DNA from: a virus
DNA: 34,036 nt
Virus record (IMG/VR): IMGVR_UViG_2599185304_000001
Strand: one strand, 5' to 3'
Positions 1,611 through 34,036 of the stretch are shown piece by piece (the stretch's first letter is position 1; each line of letters opens with the position of its first letter). The notes under the pieces are model-generated. The model ran no database searches. It saw only the letters and a program-made list of their open reading frames with translations, and was not told the DNA's origin. The translations under genes and the position numbers were made by a program.

Positions 1611-2330
1611 TCAGTCTGGCTTTTCTGTGGGAGCCGACACTTCGTCTAGGGGCAGGATCAACTGTGGCCCCTGGCTCCTGACATTCCCCACCGCTCGGCT
1701 TACCGGAAACCACTCGAAAGCCTCCGTTGGGGTGCACTGGGTCCTGGCGATTTCTTCTGCCATTCGGGGGCTTAGGTCGAGATTCAGCCACTCGCGGGCT
1801 AAGGAAGGGGACAGCACCAGGGGTCTACGGTCATGGATATCAACCATGCCCGCATCGCTGGCGGCGGTGACAATCACATACCCGTCCTGGTCGTTTGGCT
1901 CCAGGCCGGGAGTGACCTGCGCAAGCGCACCGAAAAACATGGGGGCTTGGCTTTTGAGGCGTATGAAGTACGGCTGCTTTTTCTTTGGATCATCCGGGTC
2001 CTTGACCCATTCGAACCAACCATTTGCAGGGGCAATCGCTCGGCCATTCGGCCAAAGCTGTTTAAAAAATTTCCCAGTCGTAACCGTTTCCACTCTCGCG
2101 TTTATAGGGTCCGGCCGTTTCCCTTTTGCCCAGAAAGGAGACCATCCCCACCGCACCTTATCGACGCTGAGGCCATCATTCGTCGGACGGATGATTTCTA
2201 CCTTGGTGGTGGGCGCGACGTTGTATCGATCGATGGCCCACAGGTCATAACCGTTGATTACCAATTGCTGTGGTGCCAGCTCTCTAAGGTAATGCTCCAT
2301 CGGTTCGTAGATCGAATAGCGTCCACACAT
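1611..2330 (-). CDS. SOS response-associated peptidase (SRAP, YedK/HMCES family)
   Basis: Starts MCGRY (catalytic Cys2) when begun at ATG 2330. Contains INARVETV and DIHDRRP motifs typical of SRAP. Confidence 0.85.
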   Translation of the reverse strand: MCGRYSIYEPMEHYLRELAPQQLVINGYDLWAIDRYNVAPTTKVEIIRPTNDGLSVDKVRWGWSPFWAKGKRPDPINARVETVTTGKFFKQLWPNGRAIAPANGWFEWVKDPDDPKKKQPYFIRLKSQAPMFFGALAQVTPGLEPNDQDGYVIVTAASDAGMVDIHDRRPLVLSPSLAREWLNLDLSPRMAEEIARTQCTPTEAFEWFPVSRAVGNVRSQGPQLILPLDEVSAPTEKPD

Positions 2331-2388
2331 GGATGTCACCCGTCGAAATTTCCTATACACCAATTGACCACCTGTACAACGCAGAGTT

Positions 2389-2408
2389 TACTGTATGTGC
2401 ATACAGTA
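2389..2408. promoter_or_regulatory. LexA (SOS) box in the divergent SRAP/umuD intergenic region
   Basis: TACTGTATGTGCATACAGTA fits CTGT-N8-ACAG. A possible -35 TTGACC lies at 2364-2369, with the box overlapping the -10 region. Confidence 0.85.
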
Positions 2409-2431
2409 AACTTTCCTACCAGGTCACTATC

Positions 2432-2863
2432 ATGAGTGTCAGAATTCTAGGCCCGCTATCGGAGGGCGGCGCCTCAATCCCCCTCTACTCGTTCAGGATA
2501 CCGGCGGGCTTTCCCTCGCCGGCTGCAGATCACATCGAAAAGCATATATCCCTCGACGAGCTGTTCGAGATCCGCGCCCCTCACGTCTACCTGGCAAAGA
2601 TTGAGGGCGACAGCATGCAAGGCGCAGGAATATTTTGTGGGGACCTGGTCGTGGTCAATCGCAGCCTGAACGCAGAGCATGGCGACATCGTCATAGCCGG
2701 CCTCAATTCAGAACCTATCTGCAAGCGCCTGCACATGCGTGACAACACGATCATTCTCCTGTCGGCCAATAGCAAATATCCGCCCCGGCATGTGATGGAA
2801 GGCGATGAGCTGATTATTTGGGGAGTAGTGACCTACAGCGTGCGTGACCATGGCAAGCCGTGA
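2432..2863 (+). CDS. umuD: UmuD-like S24 peptidase subunit of translesion polymerase V
   Basis: AGFPSPAADH cleavage-site region, GDSM active Ser and CKRL Lys. Collinear by eye with E. coli UmuD. Confidence 0.85.
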   Translation: MSVRILGPLSEGGASIPLYSFRIPAGFPSPAADHIEKHISLDELFEIRAPHVYLAKIEGDSMQGAGIFCGDLVVVNRSLNAEHGDIVIAGLNSEPICKRLHMRDNTIILLSANSKYPPRHVMEGDELIIWGVVTYSVRDHGKP

Positions 2864-4127
2864 CCAGGTCTTTGCGTTGATCGATTGCAACAGCTTCTAC
2901 GCGAGCTGTGAGCGTGTATTCAGGCCTGACCTGGCAAAAACCCCCATTGTTGTCTTGAGCAACAACGACGGTTGCGTCATCGCCCGAAGCTACGACGCCA
3001 AGCCGTTCGTTAAGATGGGAGCCCCGTACTTTCAGATTAAGGACACCCTTCGCCGGAACGGCGTCGCGGTTTTCAGTAGCAATTACGCGCTGTACGGCGA
3101 CATGAGCGAAAGGGTGATGACAATCATCGAGTCGATGGTGCCCGCCGTCGAGATTTACAGCATCGACGAAGCCTTTGCAGACCTGTCGGGCATTTCCGGT
3201 GACCTGACCAGCTTTGGCCGATCGATACGCGCTGCAGTCTACAAAGGAACAGGCATTCCGGTGGGCGTAGGCATCGCGCCGACTAAGACCCTGGCCAAGC
3301 TCGCCAACCACACCGCGAAGCGCCTGCAGGCGCATACAGGCGGCGTGGTTGATATATGCGATCAGGTCAAACGCGATTGGGTATTACGCAATACCGACGT
3401 TGCGGAGGTCTGGGGCGTAGGTCGCCGAATGAAAGCGCACCTGGACGCCCTGCAGATCAAGACAGCAATGGACCTCGCCAAGGCCGACCCATGGATGCTG
3501 AGGCAGAAATTCAGTGTCGTCATCGAAAAAACTGCCAGGGAGCTGGCTGGAACCTCTTGCCTGGAGCTATCCGAGACAGAGCCGCCAAAGCAGGAGATCT
3601 GCAGCGGCCGCATGTTCGGCAAGCGTCTGACGACTATTGAGCCTATCAAAGAAGCTGTGGCGACCTATGTGGCGCGGGCTTCTGAAAAGCTCAGGGGGCA
3701 AAACTCATTGTGCAAAAAAATCCGTGTCAGCATCCGAACAGGCATGTTCAACCCCGAGGAGGCGAAGTATGCCAACGGCGCTCTGGTCGAGCTGCCCTAT
3801 CCTACGAACGACGTGCGCCTGCTGACAAAGGCTGCGTCGGAAGCGGTAGATCGGCTGTTTAGGCAAGGATTCAAGTACAGCAAGGCTGAAGTCTTGCTGA
3901 TGGATCTGACGCAGCCAGGGGAGTTTACAGACGATCTTTTCGCCCAAAGCCAACCTGTGGCTGCAGAGAAGGTCATGGAAGTGTTGGATCAAATCAATCA
4001 ACGGTGGGGGCGCGGGACGCTGAGAACTGGCGGCGTCCCGTCATGCCCAGACTGGGGCATGCGGCGGGAGATGATGAGTCAGAGCTTCACCACCAGACTG
4101 GATCAACTGTGGATCGTCAAAAGCTGA
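2850..4127 (+). CDS. umuC: UmuC-like Y-family DNA polymerase
   Basis: N-terminus FALIDCNSFYASCERVF...VVLSNNDGCVIARS is typical of UmuC. It overlaps the umuD stop. The start could also be GTG 2844. Confidence 0.9.
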   Translation: MASRDQVFALIDCNSFYASCERVFRPDLAKTPIVVLSNNDGCVIARSYDAKPFVKMGAPYFQIKDTLRRNGVAVFSSNYALYGDMSERVMTIIESMVPAVEIYSIDEAFADLSGISGDLTSFGRSIRAAVYKGTGIPVGVGIAPTKTLAKLANHTAKRLQAHTGGVVDICDQVKRDWVLRNTDVAEVWGVGRRMKAHLDALQIKTAMDLAKADPWMLRQKFSVVIEKTARELAGTSCLELSETEPPKQEICSGRMFGKRLTTIEPIKEAVATYVARASEKLRGQNSLCKKIRVSIRTGMFNPEEAKYANGALVELPYPTNDVRLLTKAASEAVDRLFRQGFKYSKAEVLLMDLTQPGEFTDDLFAQSQPVAAEKVMEVLDQINQRWGRGTLRTGGVPSCPDWGMRREMMSQSFTTRLDQLWIVKS

Positions 4128-4215
4128 TAAAGGCAGATGGCCACTTTTCAGCTAAGGTTCGTGATACCGGACGAGGACCGGTACGTAGCGCCACGTCACG
4201 AAAAGGAAGCCGTCA

Positions 4216-4989
4216 ATGCAACACGAGAAATGCTACATGTGTGATGAACCCGCAACTTCGGTGGAACATGTTCCACCGAAGTGCATATTTCCTGAATATA
4301 AAGATACGAAGCAACATTTGAGGCAGAACTTAATAACCGTTCCATCATGTGACATTCACAACGCAAATAAAAGCAAGGATGACGAATTTCTAATGGTTAG
4401 TCTTGCCGGTATTATTGGTAATAACTCAATAGGTTACGAGCATTACCATGGGAAAATACAAAGAACTTTAAAGCGGTCCTCGCACAGGCTGTTAGACAAG
4501 GTTTTTTTGAATAAATCAACAATCCGTCTCGGTGATGAAAACAAGTTTCTGGATATCATCTATGGCAAACCTGACTACCAGAGGCTCGTAGATTGCTTCA
4601 CTCATATCGGTTACGGAATCTATAGGCACCACTTTCAGGCATCTTTTGCTGGGAAAATGAAGGTTTTCTTAGGTTTTTTGCACTCTGCAAACAAAAACCA
4701 TCGCACCTTTAAACAGTTCATAGCTCATAGAGCCCAAATGGACCTCCAAGAACGACACGGACAAAATCCTGAGGTCTTTTACTATCAATTAGCTGCGCCT
4801 GATAAGTTCGGAATCTCGTTGATTCATCTTTGTTTTTACGAGAACGTAAAAATCTATATATCGCTGATGCCTGAAGGGTGTGAGCCACCGTTTGACCTGG
4901 GAATGGAGCTGATCAAAGGCGGATTTGAAACAATTGTAGAAATTGAAGGGAAACAATACAAATTCAATGAACCCGCCAGCCAACATTAA
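4216..4989 (+). CDS. Hypothetical protein with an N-terminal HNH-like (beta-beta-alpha-metal) nuclease motif
   Basis: C6-x2-C9, E17-H18-VPP, N38 and C45-DI-H48-N49-ANK give an HNH-type Zn/His-Asn-His arrangement. SD AAGGAAG precedes the start. The gene is markedly AT-rich compared with its flanks. Confidence 0.55.
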   Translation: MQHEKCYMCDEPATSVEHVPPKCIFPEYKDTKQHLRQNLITVPSCDIHNANKSKDDEFLMVSLAGIIGNNSIGYEHYHGKIQRTLKRSSHRLLDKVFLNKSTIRLGDENKFLDIIYGKPDYQRLVDCFTHIGYGIYRHHFQASFAGKMKVFLGFLHSANKNHRTFKQFIAHRAQMDLQERHGQNPEVFYYQLAAPDKFGISLIHLCFYENVKIYISLMPEGCEPPFDLGMELIKGGFETIVEIEGKQYKFNEPASQH

Positions 4990-4998
4990 GAGGTCATC

Positions 4999-5829
4999 GT
5001 GGTGAACTGGGACGTCGATCTAGTAAATTTGATAGAACTTTCCTATCACGTTATGCAGAGCAAAAATGGACAAGCGATTCCAGAGGGAAGCGAGTGGAAA
5101 AACGATGCTCAGGTGATTGGGACAAAGATTTTTAGGCATGTAGTTTCGGCGCAGCAAATTGGTGCGGGAGTGGCATTAGACTTTGGAGAGAGTCGGAAGT
5201 TTGTTCATATTGATCATCCTTCTGTGGCTGTGATAGTTAGAGCCGCAGTGGAGGCGTTTCTTACTTTTAACTATATATTTGCTAATGATGATGATGCGAT
5301 TAGCATTTACAGGCATAAGCTCTGGAAGCGTTCAGGATTAATCGATAGGGGGAAGCATGCCGCGTACACCCCCGAGAGTAAAGAAATTCAAAGGCTTGAG
5401 GCGTTAGAGAGCGAAAAACTATTAAGCGAAATACAAAGCAGCGAGTTCTATAAACTAGGAAACAGGGACTCGCGAAAGAAAATTGATAGCGGAGAATGGA
5501 AACCTATTGGCGGATGGTACGCTATCACAAAAGATAGCAATATCCATCAAGAATATTTTAATAGTATCTACAATCACTTAAGCGGCCACTCCCATGCCAG
5601 CTACATTAGCATTCTTCAAATAAGAGATGCCAATGATAAGTTTGAAGATCAAAAAATGCTAGCTGATAGCAGTCGACAAATGCTATGCCTAATTCTTGCT
5701 CACTTTCTTTTTTCATATGTGAAAGTTTTTCCAGAGTCGCGAAAAATACTGGAGCAAGACAGCCGGCTCTATGAAGCTGCCGAAACCTGGCACATACAAA
5801 AAGAAGAAGTTAAGTTTATATACAGTTAG
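4999..5829 (+). CDS. Hypothetical 276-aa protein, partner of the HNH-like gene
   Basis: GTG start 9 nt after the upstream stop, with SD AAGAGG. AT-rich, no hydrophobic segments. Motifs VRAAVEAFLTFNYIF and YNHLSGHSHASY. The family was not identified. Confidence 0.5.
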   Translation: MVNWDVDLVNLIELSYHVMQSKNGQAIPEGSEWKNDAQVIGTKIFRHVVSAQQIGAGVALDFGESRKFVHIDHPSVAVIVRAAVEAFLTFNYIFANDDDAISIYRHKLWKRSGLIDRGKHAAYTPESKEIQRLEALESEKLLSEIQSSEFYKLGNRDSRKKIDSGEWKPIGGWYAITKDSNIHQEYFNSIYNHLSGHSHASYISILQIRDANDKFEDQKMLADSSRQMLCLILAHFLFSYVKVFPESRKILEQDSRLYEAAETWHIQKEEVKFIYS

Positions 5830-5844
5830 TTGTTAGCATGTTTC

Positions 5845-6816
5845 TCAATAAACAATAGGCTTTAGCCGTGTTCCAAGCGAGCGAGTGGTTGCCGCATAAG
5901 AAGTGAAAGCACTTGCGTTATCAGGGGGCGGGGTTGATCCATGTTTATGCGCAGCGAGAGTCATGCTCATTTGCTCTGTGATATCAATTAGTTCGCTGAG
6001 AATATGCAGCACATTCTCTGTTTCAGAACCCAGCCAGGTTTTCGGTGCAGACAGCCGTTGCCCTACTAGAGCAACGCTTCTCCGAAGGCCTTGAATCTGC
6101 TCCTGCATATCGCCGCCTACCGTCGTGTTGAGCTTCTGTCCGACCACCAGGTTCAGGTCCCGGCCGGTGGCCTGATGTAGATCATCTACCGCCGCCAGGC
6201 TCGCGGACCCGCCCGACAGCAGTTTGAGCGCGCCCAGCGCCTCGATCGTCTTCACACCACCCACGGACTCGCTTGAATGGTCGTCCACCGTCCTGGTGTG
6301 GCTCTGGAACTGCTCGCGGTTTTCCAGGGCTTCGACTTCCCGCTCAATCGCTTTGTCCTGGATCTTGCCATCCGTCTGGCGCAGCCAGTTGCCATCGGCG
6401 TCTACGCGCTGTTGCGCCGCCTCGCTGTGCTGCCAGACCTGATCGCCTTTCGGCACCTTCGGCATGCTCAGGCCGTGCGGGAGGATCGTCTGGATGTAGG
6501 GCTTGTTCGGCAGGCCATAGGCGAAGCACACCACGACCTGGGTGCCTTCCTCCGGAAACGCATAGATCCCCATTTCCTCGCCACCGGTGGGCAGCGGCAA
6601 CGGAACGCCGGTGAGCTGGGGTAGGAGCGGATCCGGCTCGCCGTCCGGGCCCAGGACTTCGATGTCCACGGCATAGCGCGGCCGAAAGTCGTCGCAGATC
6701 CCGGCGCCGGCCGGTGCGTCGGCCACGGCGATAACCCGGGCGAAGCGCGGCAGGTGGTAACCGCCGGTGAGTTCAGGGAATTGCCGTTCTACGCTGCGGC
6801 GGATTGCGTCTTCCAT
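5845..6816 (-). CDS. Putative baseplate central spike (gpV/gp5-like)
   Basis: Last gene of the tail operon. The N-terminal part resembles spike OB-fold proteins (GIYAFPEEGTQVVVCFAYG). Call rests on position and size. Confidence 0.45.
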   Translation of the reverse strand: MEDAIRRSVERQFPELTGGYHLPRFARVIAVADAPAGAGICDDFRPRYAVDIEVLGPDGEPDPLLPQLTGVPLPLPTGGEEMGIYAFPEEGTQVVVCFAYGLPNKPYIQTILPHGLSMPKVPKGDQVWQHSEAAQQRVDADGNWLRQTDGKIQDKAIEREVEALENREQFQSHTRTVDDHSSESVGGVKTIEALGALKLLSGGSASLAAVDDLHQATGRDLNLVVGQKLNTTVGGDMQEQIQGLRRSVALVGQRLSAPKTWLGSETENVLHILSELIDITEQMSMTLAAHKHGSTPPPDNASAFTSYAATTRSLGTRLKPIVY

Positions 6817-31558: not shown

Positions 31559-31849
31559 ATGCACATCCAAGTGATTGTTGAGCAGGAACCTGACAACGCG
31601 GCCCATGAAATCAGTCGCCTCAATGGCGTGATGATTCAACTGGGTTATGAAGGCCGTACAGTTTTCGCCGAAGCCTATGGCACCGAAGGGCTGGTGCAGA
31701 TCCTTGAAGTTCGAGCCAGCACTGGCCAAGGCGAAATCCTCGTCATGGGCTGTTCACGCGAACAGATCCAGGCAGTTCTGGAGTGGCAGTCCTGCCACGA
31801 CGAAGGGGAATTTGAAGACTTGGTAATTCACCTGGTGCGAAAGGCCTGA
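31559..31849 (+). CDS. Hypothetical protein (96 aa)
   Basis: ORF with SD AGGAGG upstream. No motif recognised. Confidence 0.4.
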   Translation: MHIQVIVEQEPDNAAHEISRLNGVMIQLGYEGRTVFAEAYGTEGLVQILEVRASTGQGEILVMGCSREQIQAVLEWQSCHDEGEFEDLVIHLVRKA

Positions 31850-32519: not shown

Positions 32520-32732
32520 ATGAACTCTCGATCGGACAACGTCCTGGTATTCACCGACCTGCAGCGTATTACCGGCTATCAACGCCGGTCTGATGTTGAA
32601 CGGTCGTTGATCAACCAAGGCGTTCGCCTGTTCCGTGGCCGGACCGGGCCATGGACCACGCTGGATCTCATAAACCAGGCCGCCGGTATGAAGCCAGCCA
32701 CAGCAGACAGATACGACGCCGACATCCTATGA
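32520..32732 (+). CDS. DUF4224-like small protein, candidate excisionase/recombination directionality factor
   Basis: LVFTDLQRITGYQRRSDVERSLINQGVRLF matches the remembered DUF4224 pattern. ATGA overlap with int. Confidence 0.55.
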   Translation: MNSRSDNVLVFTDLQRITGYQRRSDVERSLINQGVRLFRGRTGPWTTLDLINQAAGMKPATADRYDADIL

Positions 32733-33877
32733 GGAAAGCACGGAAGCGGAAGCACAATCCGCACATACCCGACCACATCGACCAGGCCGCTCTGCCAGCA
32801 GCCGTTTACTTTGACCATCGAAAAGGTCGGGTCTGGTACACGCTGCACTATGACGAAACGGGAAAACAGCGGCGGCGCAACATTGCGCCAGCGGACGTTT
32901 CTCTGGCTGAGCTGCACCAGATCATGGACGAAGCCTCCAACGTCGACCGTGGGACACTCCGCTACGTTTGCAGCCAGTTTCATGAGAGCGACCGTTTTAA
33001 GAAGCTCAGTCCCAAAACCCATGACGACTACAGCTATTCACGGGACGTCTTGCTGAACTTGCCCACAAAGCTGGAAAAGCCCCTTGGCGACTTAGCGGTG
33101 CGCAAGTTCACTTCCGCTCTGGTACAACGGATTGTCGACCGGCTAGCAGACGAAGGTACTCCGTCCAAAGCTGCGCATGTTCTTCGGTATCTACGGCGCG
33201 TTCTGCAGTGGGGCCGCAATCGCGGTTATCTGGACGTCAACCCCGCCCTGGGCATTGAGGCACCCGTCGAACGCAAACAACGCCGCCTGCCGGACCATCA
33301 AGTCATGGATGTCCTCATCGATCGAGCAATTGCCCGAGGCCTTCTGATACGAGGCGAAAAAGGCGGCTGTCCGGAATACCTCGGCTATGTGATGGAACTG
33401 GCGTATCTCTGCAGGCTGCGCGGAATCGAGGTCGTAACGTTAACCGACGCGAACGAGCTAGAGACCGGGATTCTGACCAACCGGAGGAAGGGGAGCCGGG
33501 ACAACATTGTTCGCTGGACACCCCGGCTCCGAAAGGCTTGGGACCACGCAAAGGCCTATCGAGCCAAAGTTTGGGCAAAACGCAAAACAGCGATACCTAT
33601 CGCACCGTCACGACGGAATATTATCGTGGCCAGCCACGGCGGCCCGCTTCGCAAGTCCAGCCTGGACACCGCCTGGCAACGCTTCATTACCCTGGCCATC
33701 GCCGACGAAATCATCACACCGGAACAACGGTTCGGCCTCCATGACCTGAAACGGCGAGGCATCACCGACACGGTAGGCAACCGGGCGGACAAACAAGAAG
33801 CAAGTGGCCACCGCGACCCCAAGATGATGGACGTCTACGACCACAGCGTACCTACTGTTTCCCCTTCTGCAGACTGA
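32729..33877 (+). CDS. int: Tyrosine recombinase (phage integrase)
   Basis: Catalytic-type residues are present: LCRLRGIE (Arg), HDLKRRG (His-x-x-Arg), GHRDPKMMDVYDH (His...Tyr). Adjacent to attR. The track ORF opens at 32651, but ATG 32729 is coupled to the upstream gene. Confidence 0.9.
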   Translation: MRKARKRKHNPHIPDHIDQAALPAAVYFDHRKGRVWYTLHYDETGKQRRRNIAPADVSLAELHQIMDEASNVDRGTLRYVCSQFHESDRFKKLSPKTHDDYSYSRDVLLNLPTKLEKPLGDLAVRKFTSALVQRIVDRLADEGTPSKAAHVLRYLRRVLQWGRNRGYLDVNPALGIEAPVERKQRRLPDHQVMDVLIDRAIARGLLIRGEKGGCPEYLGYVMELAYLCRLRGIEVVTLTDANELETGILTNRRKGSRDNIVRWTPRLRKAWDHAKAYRAKVWAKRKTAIPIAPSRRNIIVASHGGPLRKSSLDTAWQRFITLAIADEIITPEQRFGLHDLKRRGITDTVGNRADKQEASGHRDPKMMDVYDHSVPTVSPSAD

Positions 33878-33989: not shown

Positions 33990-34036
33990 CTTGTAATCAG
34001 TAGGTCCCGGGTTCGATTCCTGGTGCCGGCACCATA
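33990..34036 (+). repeat. attR core: 47-nt duplicate of the tRNA-Thr 3' end (not an intact tRNA)
   Basis: Identical to 1..47. The preceding bases CCTTC cannot pair with the anticodon-stem strand TCAGT. Confidence 0.9.

Follow-up and report, generated by a model that had tools for sequence, protein, structure and literature searches.

A low-G+C gene pair encoding an HNH-like and a DUF5677 protein as a candidate anti-phage cassette in a hypervariable slot of a Pseudomonas P2-like prophage

The virus record IMGVR_UViG_2599185304_000001, a stretch of 34,036 nucleotides (nt) referred to here as the window, was analysed around a cassette of two open reading frames (ORFs), ORF1 and ORF2, located between umuC and the end of the tail operon of a P2-like Pseudomonas prophage. 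In this cassette a member of an unnamed HNH-like family is paired, facultatively, with a DUF5677 protein at a prophage hotspot; it is a legitimate and now more closely defined anti-phage candidate, one of very many. The best explanation as a whole, to which slightly less than even weight is given, is that the two genes are separable accessory cargo, ORF1 being nuclease-like and ORF2 a DUF5677 protein, which would serve in defence of the lysogen. The two genes are as follows (aa, amino acids).

4216 to 4989, forward strand: ORF1, 257 aa, ATG start; HNH-type N-terminal motif; member of a large unnamed family.
4999 to 5829, forward strand: ORF2, 276 aa, GTG start (275 aa if the GTG at 5002 is used); DUF5677 (PF18928), predicted to be all-helical.

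The first-pass annotation, made from the letters alone, had described an AT-rich insert (about 40% against 60% G+C) with two coupled genes 9 nt apart, each with its own Shine-Dalgarno sequence, ending 15 nt from the convergent stop of the structural operon, and measurement bore out each of these points. ORF1 begins 88 nt beyond the end of umuC (4127), with AAAAGGAAG located 7 nt ahead of its ATG, and a gap of 9 nt separates it from ORF2, whose GTG is preceded by AAGAGG; purine-rich ribosome-binding sequences are thus found ahead of both starts. Between the ORF2 stop and that of the convergent spike gene (5845) there are 15 nt. Adjacent GTG codons occur at 4999 and 5002, and since the ORF2 homologues start with MNWD, the true start may be the second of these (275 aa, with a 12-nt gap). 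The G+C content was found to be 0.412 for the cassette (0.407 for ORF1 and 0.415 for ORF2), against 0.567 for umuDC, 0.621 for the structural genes and 0.589 for the whole window, and the sliding G+C profile presented a single sharp trough (0.37–0.45) confined to positions ~4200–5900. Similarly, ORF1 homologues were G+C-poorer than their own locus in 93% of 73 loci, and ORF2 homologues displayed values of ~0.40–0.45 regardless of host G+C. The view that the cassette is horizontally acquired foreign cargo, at a variable position of a P2-like prophage as first proposed, is therefore supported both by this contrast and by the comparison of the slot among related prophages.

P2-like prophages carry variable anti-phage loci at fixed positions, such as old, tin and fun/Z of P2. 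In the window, the fixed flank is the gene that had been taken at first reading for a tail spike, a name that fits the domain found in its product.

5845 to 6816, reverse strand: baseplate spike protein, gpV-like, 323 aa, with Pfam Phage_base_V (expect value, E, 3.8e-5); closes the tail operon and forms the fixed flank of the cargo hotspot.

The viral contigs of IMG/VR yielded 442 relatives of the spike protein, and the slot was compared among the 67 best spike loci (78–88% identity) with at least 1.5 kilobases (kb) beyond the spike gene. The first-pass annotation had proposed such a comparison as a way of seeing whether the content varies, and it does: more than 200 gene families follow the spike gene across these 67 related prophages. 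ORF2 was present in 1/67, ORF1 in 0/67, and umuC together with the SOS-response-associated peptidase (SRAP) gene in 2/67, the only recurrent flanks being a 98-aa and an 83-aa gene. Because of this rarity in the slot of related prophages, ORF1 and ORF2 are rare occupants of a hypervariable hotspot and not phage core functions; a conserved role in phage structure or assembly was rejected, as 66 of the 67 related prophages carry neither gene. The position, the variable content and the foreign composition of the cassette are all those of a hotspot occupant. The cargo found in the same slot or neighbourhood of relatives includes an OLD-like AAA_15/TOPRIM gene (locus L172), helix-turn-helix plus RVT (reverse transcriptase) and AIPR genes (L087/L088), TacA/GNAT (L175) and Fic (L176). 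The slot resembles the known P2-like defence hotspots (old, tin, fun/Z; Rousset et al. 2022, PMC9122126; PMC13586616) in being a fixed place beside structural genes with hypervariable, AT-rich and often defensive content; it differs from them in belonging to a Pseudomonas lineage with another gene order (HP1_ORF34-like genes, and a slot at the att end, beyond the spike gene). The cassette corresponds to no named P2/P4 system, and the terms HNH and DUF5677 are absent from the text of PMC13586616.

The 98-aa gene (family F1) and the ~83-aa gene (family F3) lie at the far side of the slot, for example in L198, L200, L210, L228, L230 and L237 and at 5650–5946 of L087, and they look like a conserved second flank of the hotspot. 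A 98-aa ORF upstream of some ORF2 homologues was considered as an alternative partner and rejected, as it is this same flank gene (F1), common in relatives without ORF2.

ORF1 was matched by no family of Pfam, NCBIfam or PHROGs. Its family is nevertheless large, with 686 matches in a word-indexed search and 2,485 clusters at 50% identity in an exhaustive search (E ≤ 0.001), nearly all of 220–260 aa and matching end to end, in phyla that include Pseudomonadota, Campylobacterota, Bacteroidota, Planctomycetota, Nitrospirota and Verrucomicrobiota. Homologues were located at just 183 loci in 185,579 species genomes by a scan with exact peptide patterns, and ORF1 is nearly absent from phages: tblastn against 50,697 phage genomes found nothing with ORF1 or with ORF2, and 2.9 million viral contigs gave 2 matches to ORF1. 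Among 59 homologues, the invariant residues include C9, E17, H18, C45, H48, N49, K52, D56 and E57, and C6 is nearly invariant. The resulting layout, C6-x2-C9 ... E17-H18 ... C45-x2-H48-N49-x2-K52, follows the pattern C-x2-C...E-H...C-x2-H-N-x2-K, which we take to be that of zinc-containing HNH nucleases. Of the HNH motif originally read in this protein, C6, C9, E17, H18, C45, H48 and N49 are present and conserved, whereas N38 is not, the position being occupied by N, K, D, H, E or Q. In the AlphaFold model (predicted local distance difference test, pLDDT, 81.9), strands are placed at residues 15–18 and 41–44 and a helix at 46–68, with E17-H18 closing the first strand and H48-N49 opening the long helix; the model thus predicts a strand-strand-helix with a His ending the first strand and Asn/His at the helix start, as in the beta-beta-alpha-metal fold. 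Residues ~97–250 are predicted to form a mixed alpha/beta domain without a detectable relative. Judging from the motif and the model, ORF1 is likely an HNH-type nuclease. No similarity was detected by hhalign between the ORF1 family and an annotated HNH endonuclease (L184).

The nearest named counterpart is PtuB, the HNH nuclease partner of the PtuA ATPase in the Septu system. Four PtuB profiles of PADLOC align with ORF1 residues 2–57 (CxxC...EH...CxxHN), weakly (E 1.1e-3, 16.7 bits), and 27 of the 59 homologues match the PtuB profile PDLC00340 (best E 7.9e-5), with 6 of the 59 matching PDC-M01B. The defence library used was PADLOC-DB v2.0.0, outside which lie systems described after 2023, and it gave only these weak PtuB and PDC-M01B matches for ORF1 and no meaningful match for ORF2 or its homologues, in keeping with the first impression that no named defence system fits the cassette. 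The likeness to PtuB consists in its profiles being the library models that touch ORF1, in similar size (~215–270 aa) and in the N-terminal position of the nuclease motif in both. The differences are the marginal profile scores and the normally solitary occurrence of ORF1; no PtuA-type ATPase gene is adjacent in the window, where the neighbours are umuC and the DUF5677 gene, and no ATPase family appears repeatedly among the 149 genes directly flanking ORF1 homologues. For want of PtuA, ORF1 does not qualify as a member of Septu; its scores against the PtuB profiles are marginal. Stand-alone HNH restriction enzymes are also known, namely those of the McrA type (type IV, modification-dependent). 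As a working analogy from general knowledge, ORF1 shares with them a single polypeptide with an HNH domain and a second, putatively target-choosing domain, no methyltransferase partner and a sporadic occurrence in defence-rich regions, but the domain order is reversed in ORF1 and neither McrA nor any reader domain was found to resemble it in sequence or structure.

ORF2 was matched by Pfam DUF5677 (PF18928) with an E of 1.7e-11 and 45 bits (cut-off 27.1), over residues 75–213 only of its 276. The model is passed by 57 of 58 ORF2 homologues, and relatives are named 'DUF5677 domain-containing protein' by NCBI; by these profile matches ORF2 is a genuine DUF5677 member, a kinship that the first-pass annotation had suggested only faintly. 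The same annotation had described a soluble, helical protein, and the AlphaFold model (pLDDT 95.6; predicted template modelling score, pTM, 0.92) agrees, being all-helical with one small hairpin. Foldseek comparison of both models, which had been suggested at the outset, was run against PDB for both proteins and against BFVD for ORF2, and gave no match at E ≤ 0.001; for ORF2 the best PDB match had an E of 0.09, with template modelling (TM) scores of at most 0.3, and nothing significant was found in BFVD. A profile search of the sequences of solved structures with the ORF2 family likewise found nothing. Residues K43, H47, D72, H73, R81, E85, R105, W109, R117, E134, H183, Y191, H199, S201, S204 and Q207 are invariant or near-invariant; the His, Asp, Arg and Glu among them may point to an enzyme or to a pocket that binds phosphate or nucleotides. 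DUF5677 was rarely mentioned in the literature searched.

Other genes were also seen beside ORF2 homologues. Those of enterobacteria are preceded by a conserved gene of ~118–154 aa (…EIEGxKFSFLALGSQKW…), a possible alternative DUF5677 partner (L083 5532–5888; L101 2425–2907; L102 7432–7896; L103 3413–3877; L105 7426–7890). Additionally, a gene of 309 or 343 aa lies on the same strand between some ORF2 homologues and the spike gene (L177 1902–2831; L091 3627–4658; L093 868–1899).

The relation between the two genes was assessed from their distribution. In the genome scan, which relied on two exact peptide patterns and was evaluated for the best 80 of the 183 ORF1 loci, no ORF2 homologue was found within 8 kb (0/80), a count that understates the pairing in Pseudomonas because the scan missed paired genomes such as P. 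asplenii. The 149 genes next to ORF1 homologues showed no recurrent family, and 19 of 73 ORF1 loci had no close co-directional neighbour. The closest ORF1 relatives, in Pseudomonas sp. OA65 (80% identity) and Pseudomonas sp. GXM4 (73%), lack ORF2, and both present the order SRAP-umuD-umuC-ORF1. Similarly, ORF2 homologues stand without an ORF1 in other Pseudomonas prophages of this lineage, on a Pantoea plasmid, in the majority of metagenome loci and in Enterobacter hormaechei, where a different prophage has SRAP and a convergent umuDC next to the homologue at its end. Within the close ORF2 clade, ORF1 is missing from about half of the members, one of which (L095) is flanked by opposite-strand genes only. 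The pair was found in seven Pseudomonas lineages (window/L179, L176, L177, L175, L092=L187 of P. asplenii, L104 and L189), in the same order and orientation with gaps of 8–41 nt, and these lineages have diverged to 58–72% identity in ORF1 and 48–65% in ORF2. The upstream context of the pair varies, being umuC in the window and L179, Fic in L176, TacAT in L175 and an AAA_21 gene in L189. Paired and solo members are intermixed in both trees, within one gammaproteobacterial clade. The recurrent pairing in the Pseudomonas subclade is real and non-random, and its simplest reading is that of two autonomous genes that were linked once and often travel together, either of them having been lost or replaced repeatedly. 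The single unit of nuclease effector and sensor/regulator that the first-pass annotation had envisaged does not agree with the 0/80 count nor with ORF2 homologues that mostly stand without ORF1.

In one of the paired lineages, an AAA_21 ATPase gene (391 aa) and an overlapping 164-aa gene lie ~1 kb upstream of the pair (L189 3379–5045; L190 206–1872) and are possibly a separate two-gene defence module; no similarity was found by hhalign between the ORF1 family and the 164-aa protein of L189.

We infer a nuclease activity for ORF1 and an anti-phage role; any functional coupling of ORF1 and ORF2 would likewise be inferred, and could be no more than optional. By association, a defence or anti-mobile-element role is favoured by the hotspot position, the AT-rich composition, the sporadic spread across phyla and the defence neighbours. 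The 149 genes immediately beside ORF1 homologues gave strong PADLOC matches to GajB, DRT2, type II restriction-modification and ThsB, together with the PADLOC candidates PDC-S39, PDC-S20, PDC-M71B and PDC-M14A, and one homologue lies amid DUF262, HNH and DUF2971 genes on an Aliarcobacter plasmid. At P4 hotspots, six of eight randomly chosen uncharacterised loci were reported to protect against phages (PMC13586616). In mechanistic terms, ORF1 would be a small metal-dependent DNA nuclease with a zinc-stabilised beta-beta-alpha (HNH-type) active site, in which H18 would act as general base and N49 as metal ligand, with C6, C9, C45 and H48 holding the zinc. Since the ORF1 family is normally single-gene, target choice is assigned to its own C-terminal alpha/beta domain, which would supply this choice or the activation of the nuclease. 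ORF1 would thereby be the DNA-cleaving effector with which the prophage would protect its lysogen from competing phages or other mobile DNA, and ORF2 a second module, independent or accessory, co-transcribed with ORF1.

Several points weigh against this explanation. No Pfam HNH model was matched at E ≤ 1 by ORF1 or by any of the 59 homologues, and N38, once taken for the HNH asparagine, was rejected in that role on account of its variation. The best Foldseek match of the ORF1 model in PDB had an E of 0.05 and no HNH protein was retrieved, and sequence-profile searches of PDB with the ORF1 family, and with its N-terminal 66 residues alone, gave 0 matches. The defence-gene counts beside ORF1 homologues are raw, without a background rate. 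For DUF5677, the sole gene reported as tested, a distant Bacillota relative located beside a serine recombinase, was one of nine assayed in Enterococcus faecalis and was not among the five that protected (PMC12632615). Finally, the recurrent tight pairing could reflect a real functional coupling that is underrated when the two genes are treated as separable.

In a more elaborate explanation, possible but doubtful, the cassette would be an undescribed modular anti-phage system composed of an ATPase-free PtuB-like HNH nuclease and a DUF5677 protein of new helical fold, the latter an enzyme or a sensor of nucleotides or phosphate, each part autonomous, whose coupling would extend or gate the activity and might be switched by the SOS response together with umuDC. 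A stricter form, an obligate two-component defence system with ORF1 as nuclease effector and ORF2 as sensor/regulator, neither of which would work properly alone, was considered unlikely. The order, orientation and short gaps kept across seven diverged lineages speak for it, as does the movement of the pair as a unit into differing contexts (umuC, Fic, TacAT, AAA_21); chance adjacency is negligible, with each family present in roughly 0.1% of genomes. These observations are countered by the 0/80 ORF1 genome loci with ORF2, by the closest ORF1 relatives without it, by the half of the close ORF2 clade, L095 included, that lacks ORF1 and by the intermixing of paired and solo members in both trees. 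Because each gene usually occurs alone, an obligate dependence, of either the effector/sensor or the toxin/immunity kind, was ruled out.

A function in SOS and DNA damage was also weighed, for which the genes upstream of the cassette and one palindrome are relevant.

1611 to 2330, reverse strand: SRAP (YedK-like) cargo gene; Pfam PF02586, E 4.5e-48.
2391 to 2406, forward strand: LexA-box-like palindrome CTGTATGTGCATACAG, CTGT-N8-ACAG, between SRAP and umuD; putative regulatory role.
2432 to 4127, forward strand: umuD (Peptidase_S24) and umuC (IMS, IMS_C, DUF4113), translesion polymerase V operon, directly upstream of the cassette.

According to this explanation, ORF1 and perhaps ORF2 would be read through from a LexA-controlled umuDC and would act on damaged or replicating DNA during SOS or prophage induction. 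It was judged quite improbable, though worth retaining as a rival. ORF1 lies 84–89 nt beyond umuC in four loci (the window, L179, L172 and L173), a scan of 3900–6100 predicted no promoter-like or terminator-like site, the LexA-box-like palindrome lies ahead of umuD, and enterobacterial ORF2 homologues also stand beside SRAP and umuDC, with umuC present in L083–86 and L101. The pattern CTGT-N8-ACAG occurs twice in the window (2391–2406 and 31750–31765), against 0.36 expected, and the spacer between umuC and ORF1 showed no unusual folding (z −1.5). Yet no umuC was found near any other ORF1 or ORF2 locus, the G+C of the cassette and of umuDC differ by 15 points and therefore point to separate acquisition, the Enterobacter ORF2 and umuDC are convergent and so not co-transcribed, and the hotspot itself seldom holds umuDC and SRAP (2/67).

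The second palindrome (31750–31765) lies near the regulatory and integrase end of the prophage. SRAP and umuDC travel jointly as prophage cargo (1611–4127 of the window; L083–L086, L101, L172–L174, L179, L191 and L194). This block adjoins ORF1 in Pseudomonas and an ORF2 homologue in Enterobacter, in a different phage type, and the same block fills the post-spike slot without ORF1 or ORF2 in two of the 67 related prophages.

A toxin/immunity or addiction module, in which a toxic nuclease ORF1 would be neutralised by ORF2 and the prophage thereby stabilised, had been offered in the first-pass annotation as an alternative. Two small, tightly spaced genes on a mobile element, one of them nuclease-like, and the presence of toxin-antitoxin genes (TacA/GNAT, Fic) in the same hotspot of relatives would suit such a module, but the obligate co-occurrence expected of it is not seen, as each gene occurs alone: ORF1 stands by itself at over 90% of the loci examined, often as a monocistronic gene, and ORF2 persists without ORF1. 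As a toxic nuclease without its antidote could not persist, this alternative was regarded as very unlikely. Least probable of all is that ORF1 is a homing-type HNH endonuclease that stands free and spreads selfishly, ORF2 being an unrelated passenger, and that neither host nor prophage gains from them. This would suit a small, low-G+C HNH-type protein sporadic across phyla, but not its near absence from the phage genomes and viral contigs searched, the lack of a conserved target gene among its neighbours or the full-length architecture kept over ~2,500 clusters, which argues for selection on the whole protein.

The explanation as separable accessory cargo with a defence role is set in a complete mobile element, since 47-base-pair (bp) att repeats sit at both ends of the window, which is exactly one complete integrated P2-like Pseudomonas prophage.

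1 to 47, no strand assigned: attL, 47-bp perfect direct repeat CTTGTAATCAGTAGGTCCCGGGTTCGATTCCTGGTGCCGGCACCATA, 100% identical to 33990–34036 (repeat family D3); prophage border.
33990 to 34036, no strand assigned: attR, right-hand copy of the 47-bp repeat; adjoins the integrase gene (32651–33877).

The repeat resembles the 3' end of a tRNA gene (GGTTCGATTCC T-arm), and no complete tRNA was found in the window by ARAGORN. Pfam matches between the repeats include a P2-family major capsid protein, the GPO scaffold, the portal, a Toprim_2 primase-like protein and the integrase, and the identical locus is present in the Pseudomonas assembly GCA_900119645.1. The cassette occupies the attL-proximal end, beyond the last tail gene, where a response regulator, SRAP and umuDC are found as further cargo. 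The response regulator is a stand-alone receiver gene of 142–149 aa (536–985) and is accompanied by a 70-aa ORF (~990–1200), this cargo end having a G+C of 0.38–0.50. A solo ORF1 homologue with 63% identity was found in P. chlororaphis chromosomes (L185/L186 7001–7777), where the prophage is absent, and the same host genes (ABC transporter, Methyltransf_32, Methyltransf_21) precede this homologue and the prophage of GCA_900119645.1; the P. chlororaphis locus marks a variable spot of the chromosome, located at the att site or close to it.

If neither gene protects, the cassette would be one more pair of prophage morons without an assigned function. If either does, a function would be obtained for one of two sizeable families, the unnamed HNH-like family (~2,500 clusters at 50% identity, without a Pfam model) and DUF5677, a confidently predicted fold without a relative in PDB or BFVD. 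Were the proposed role of ORF1 true, it would represent a PtuB-like nuclease working without the controlling ATPase of Septu, which raises the question of how self-damage is avoided. Additionally, the post-spike slot of a widespread Pseudomonas P2-like lineage (442 IMG/VR relatives) is now documented, so that its systematic mining becomes possible.

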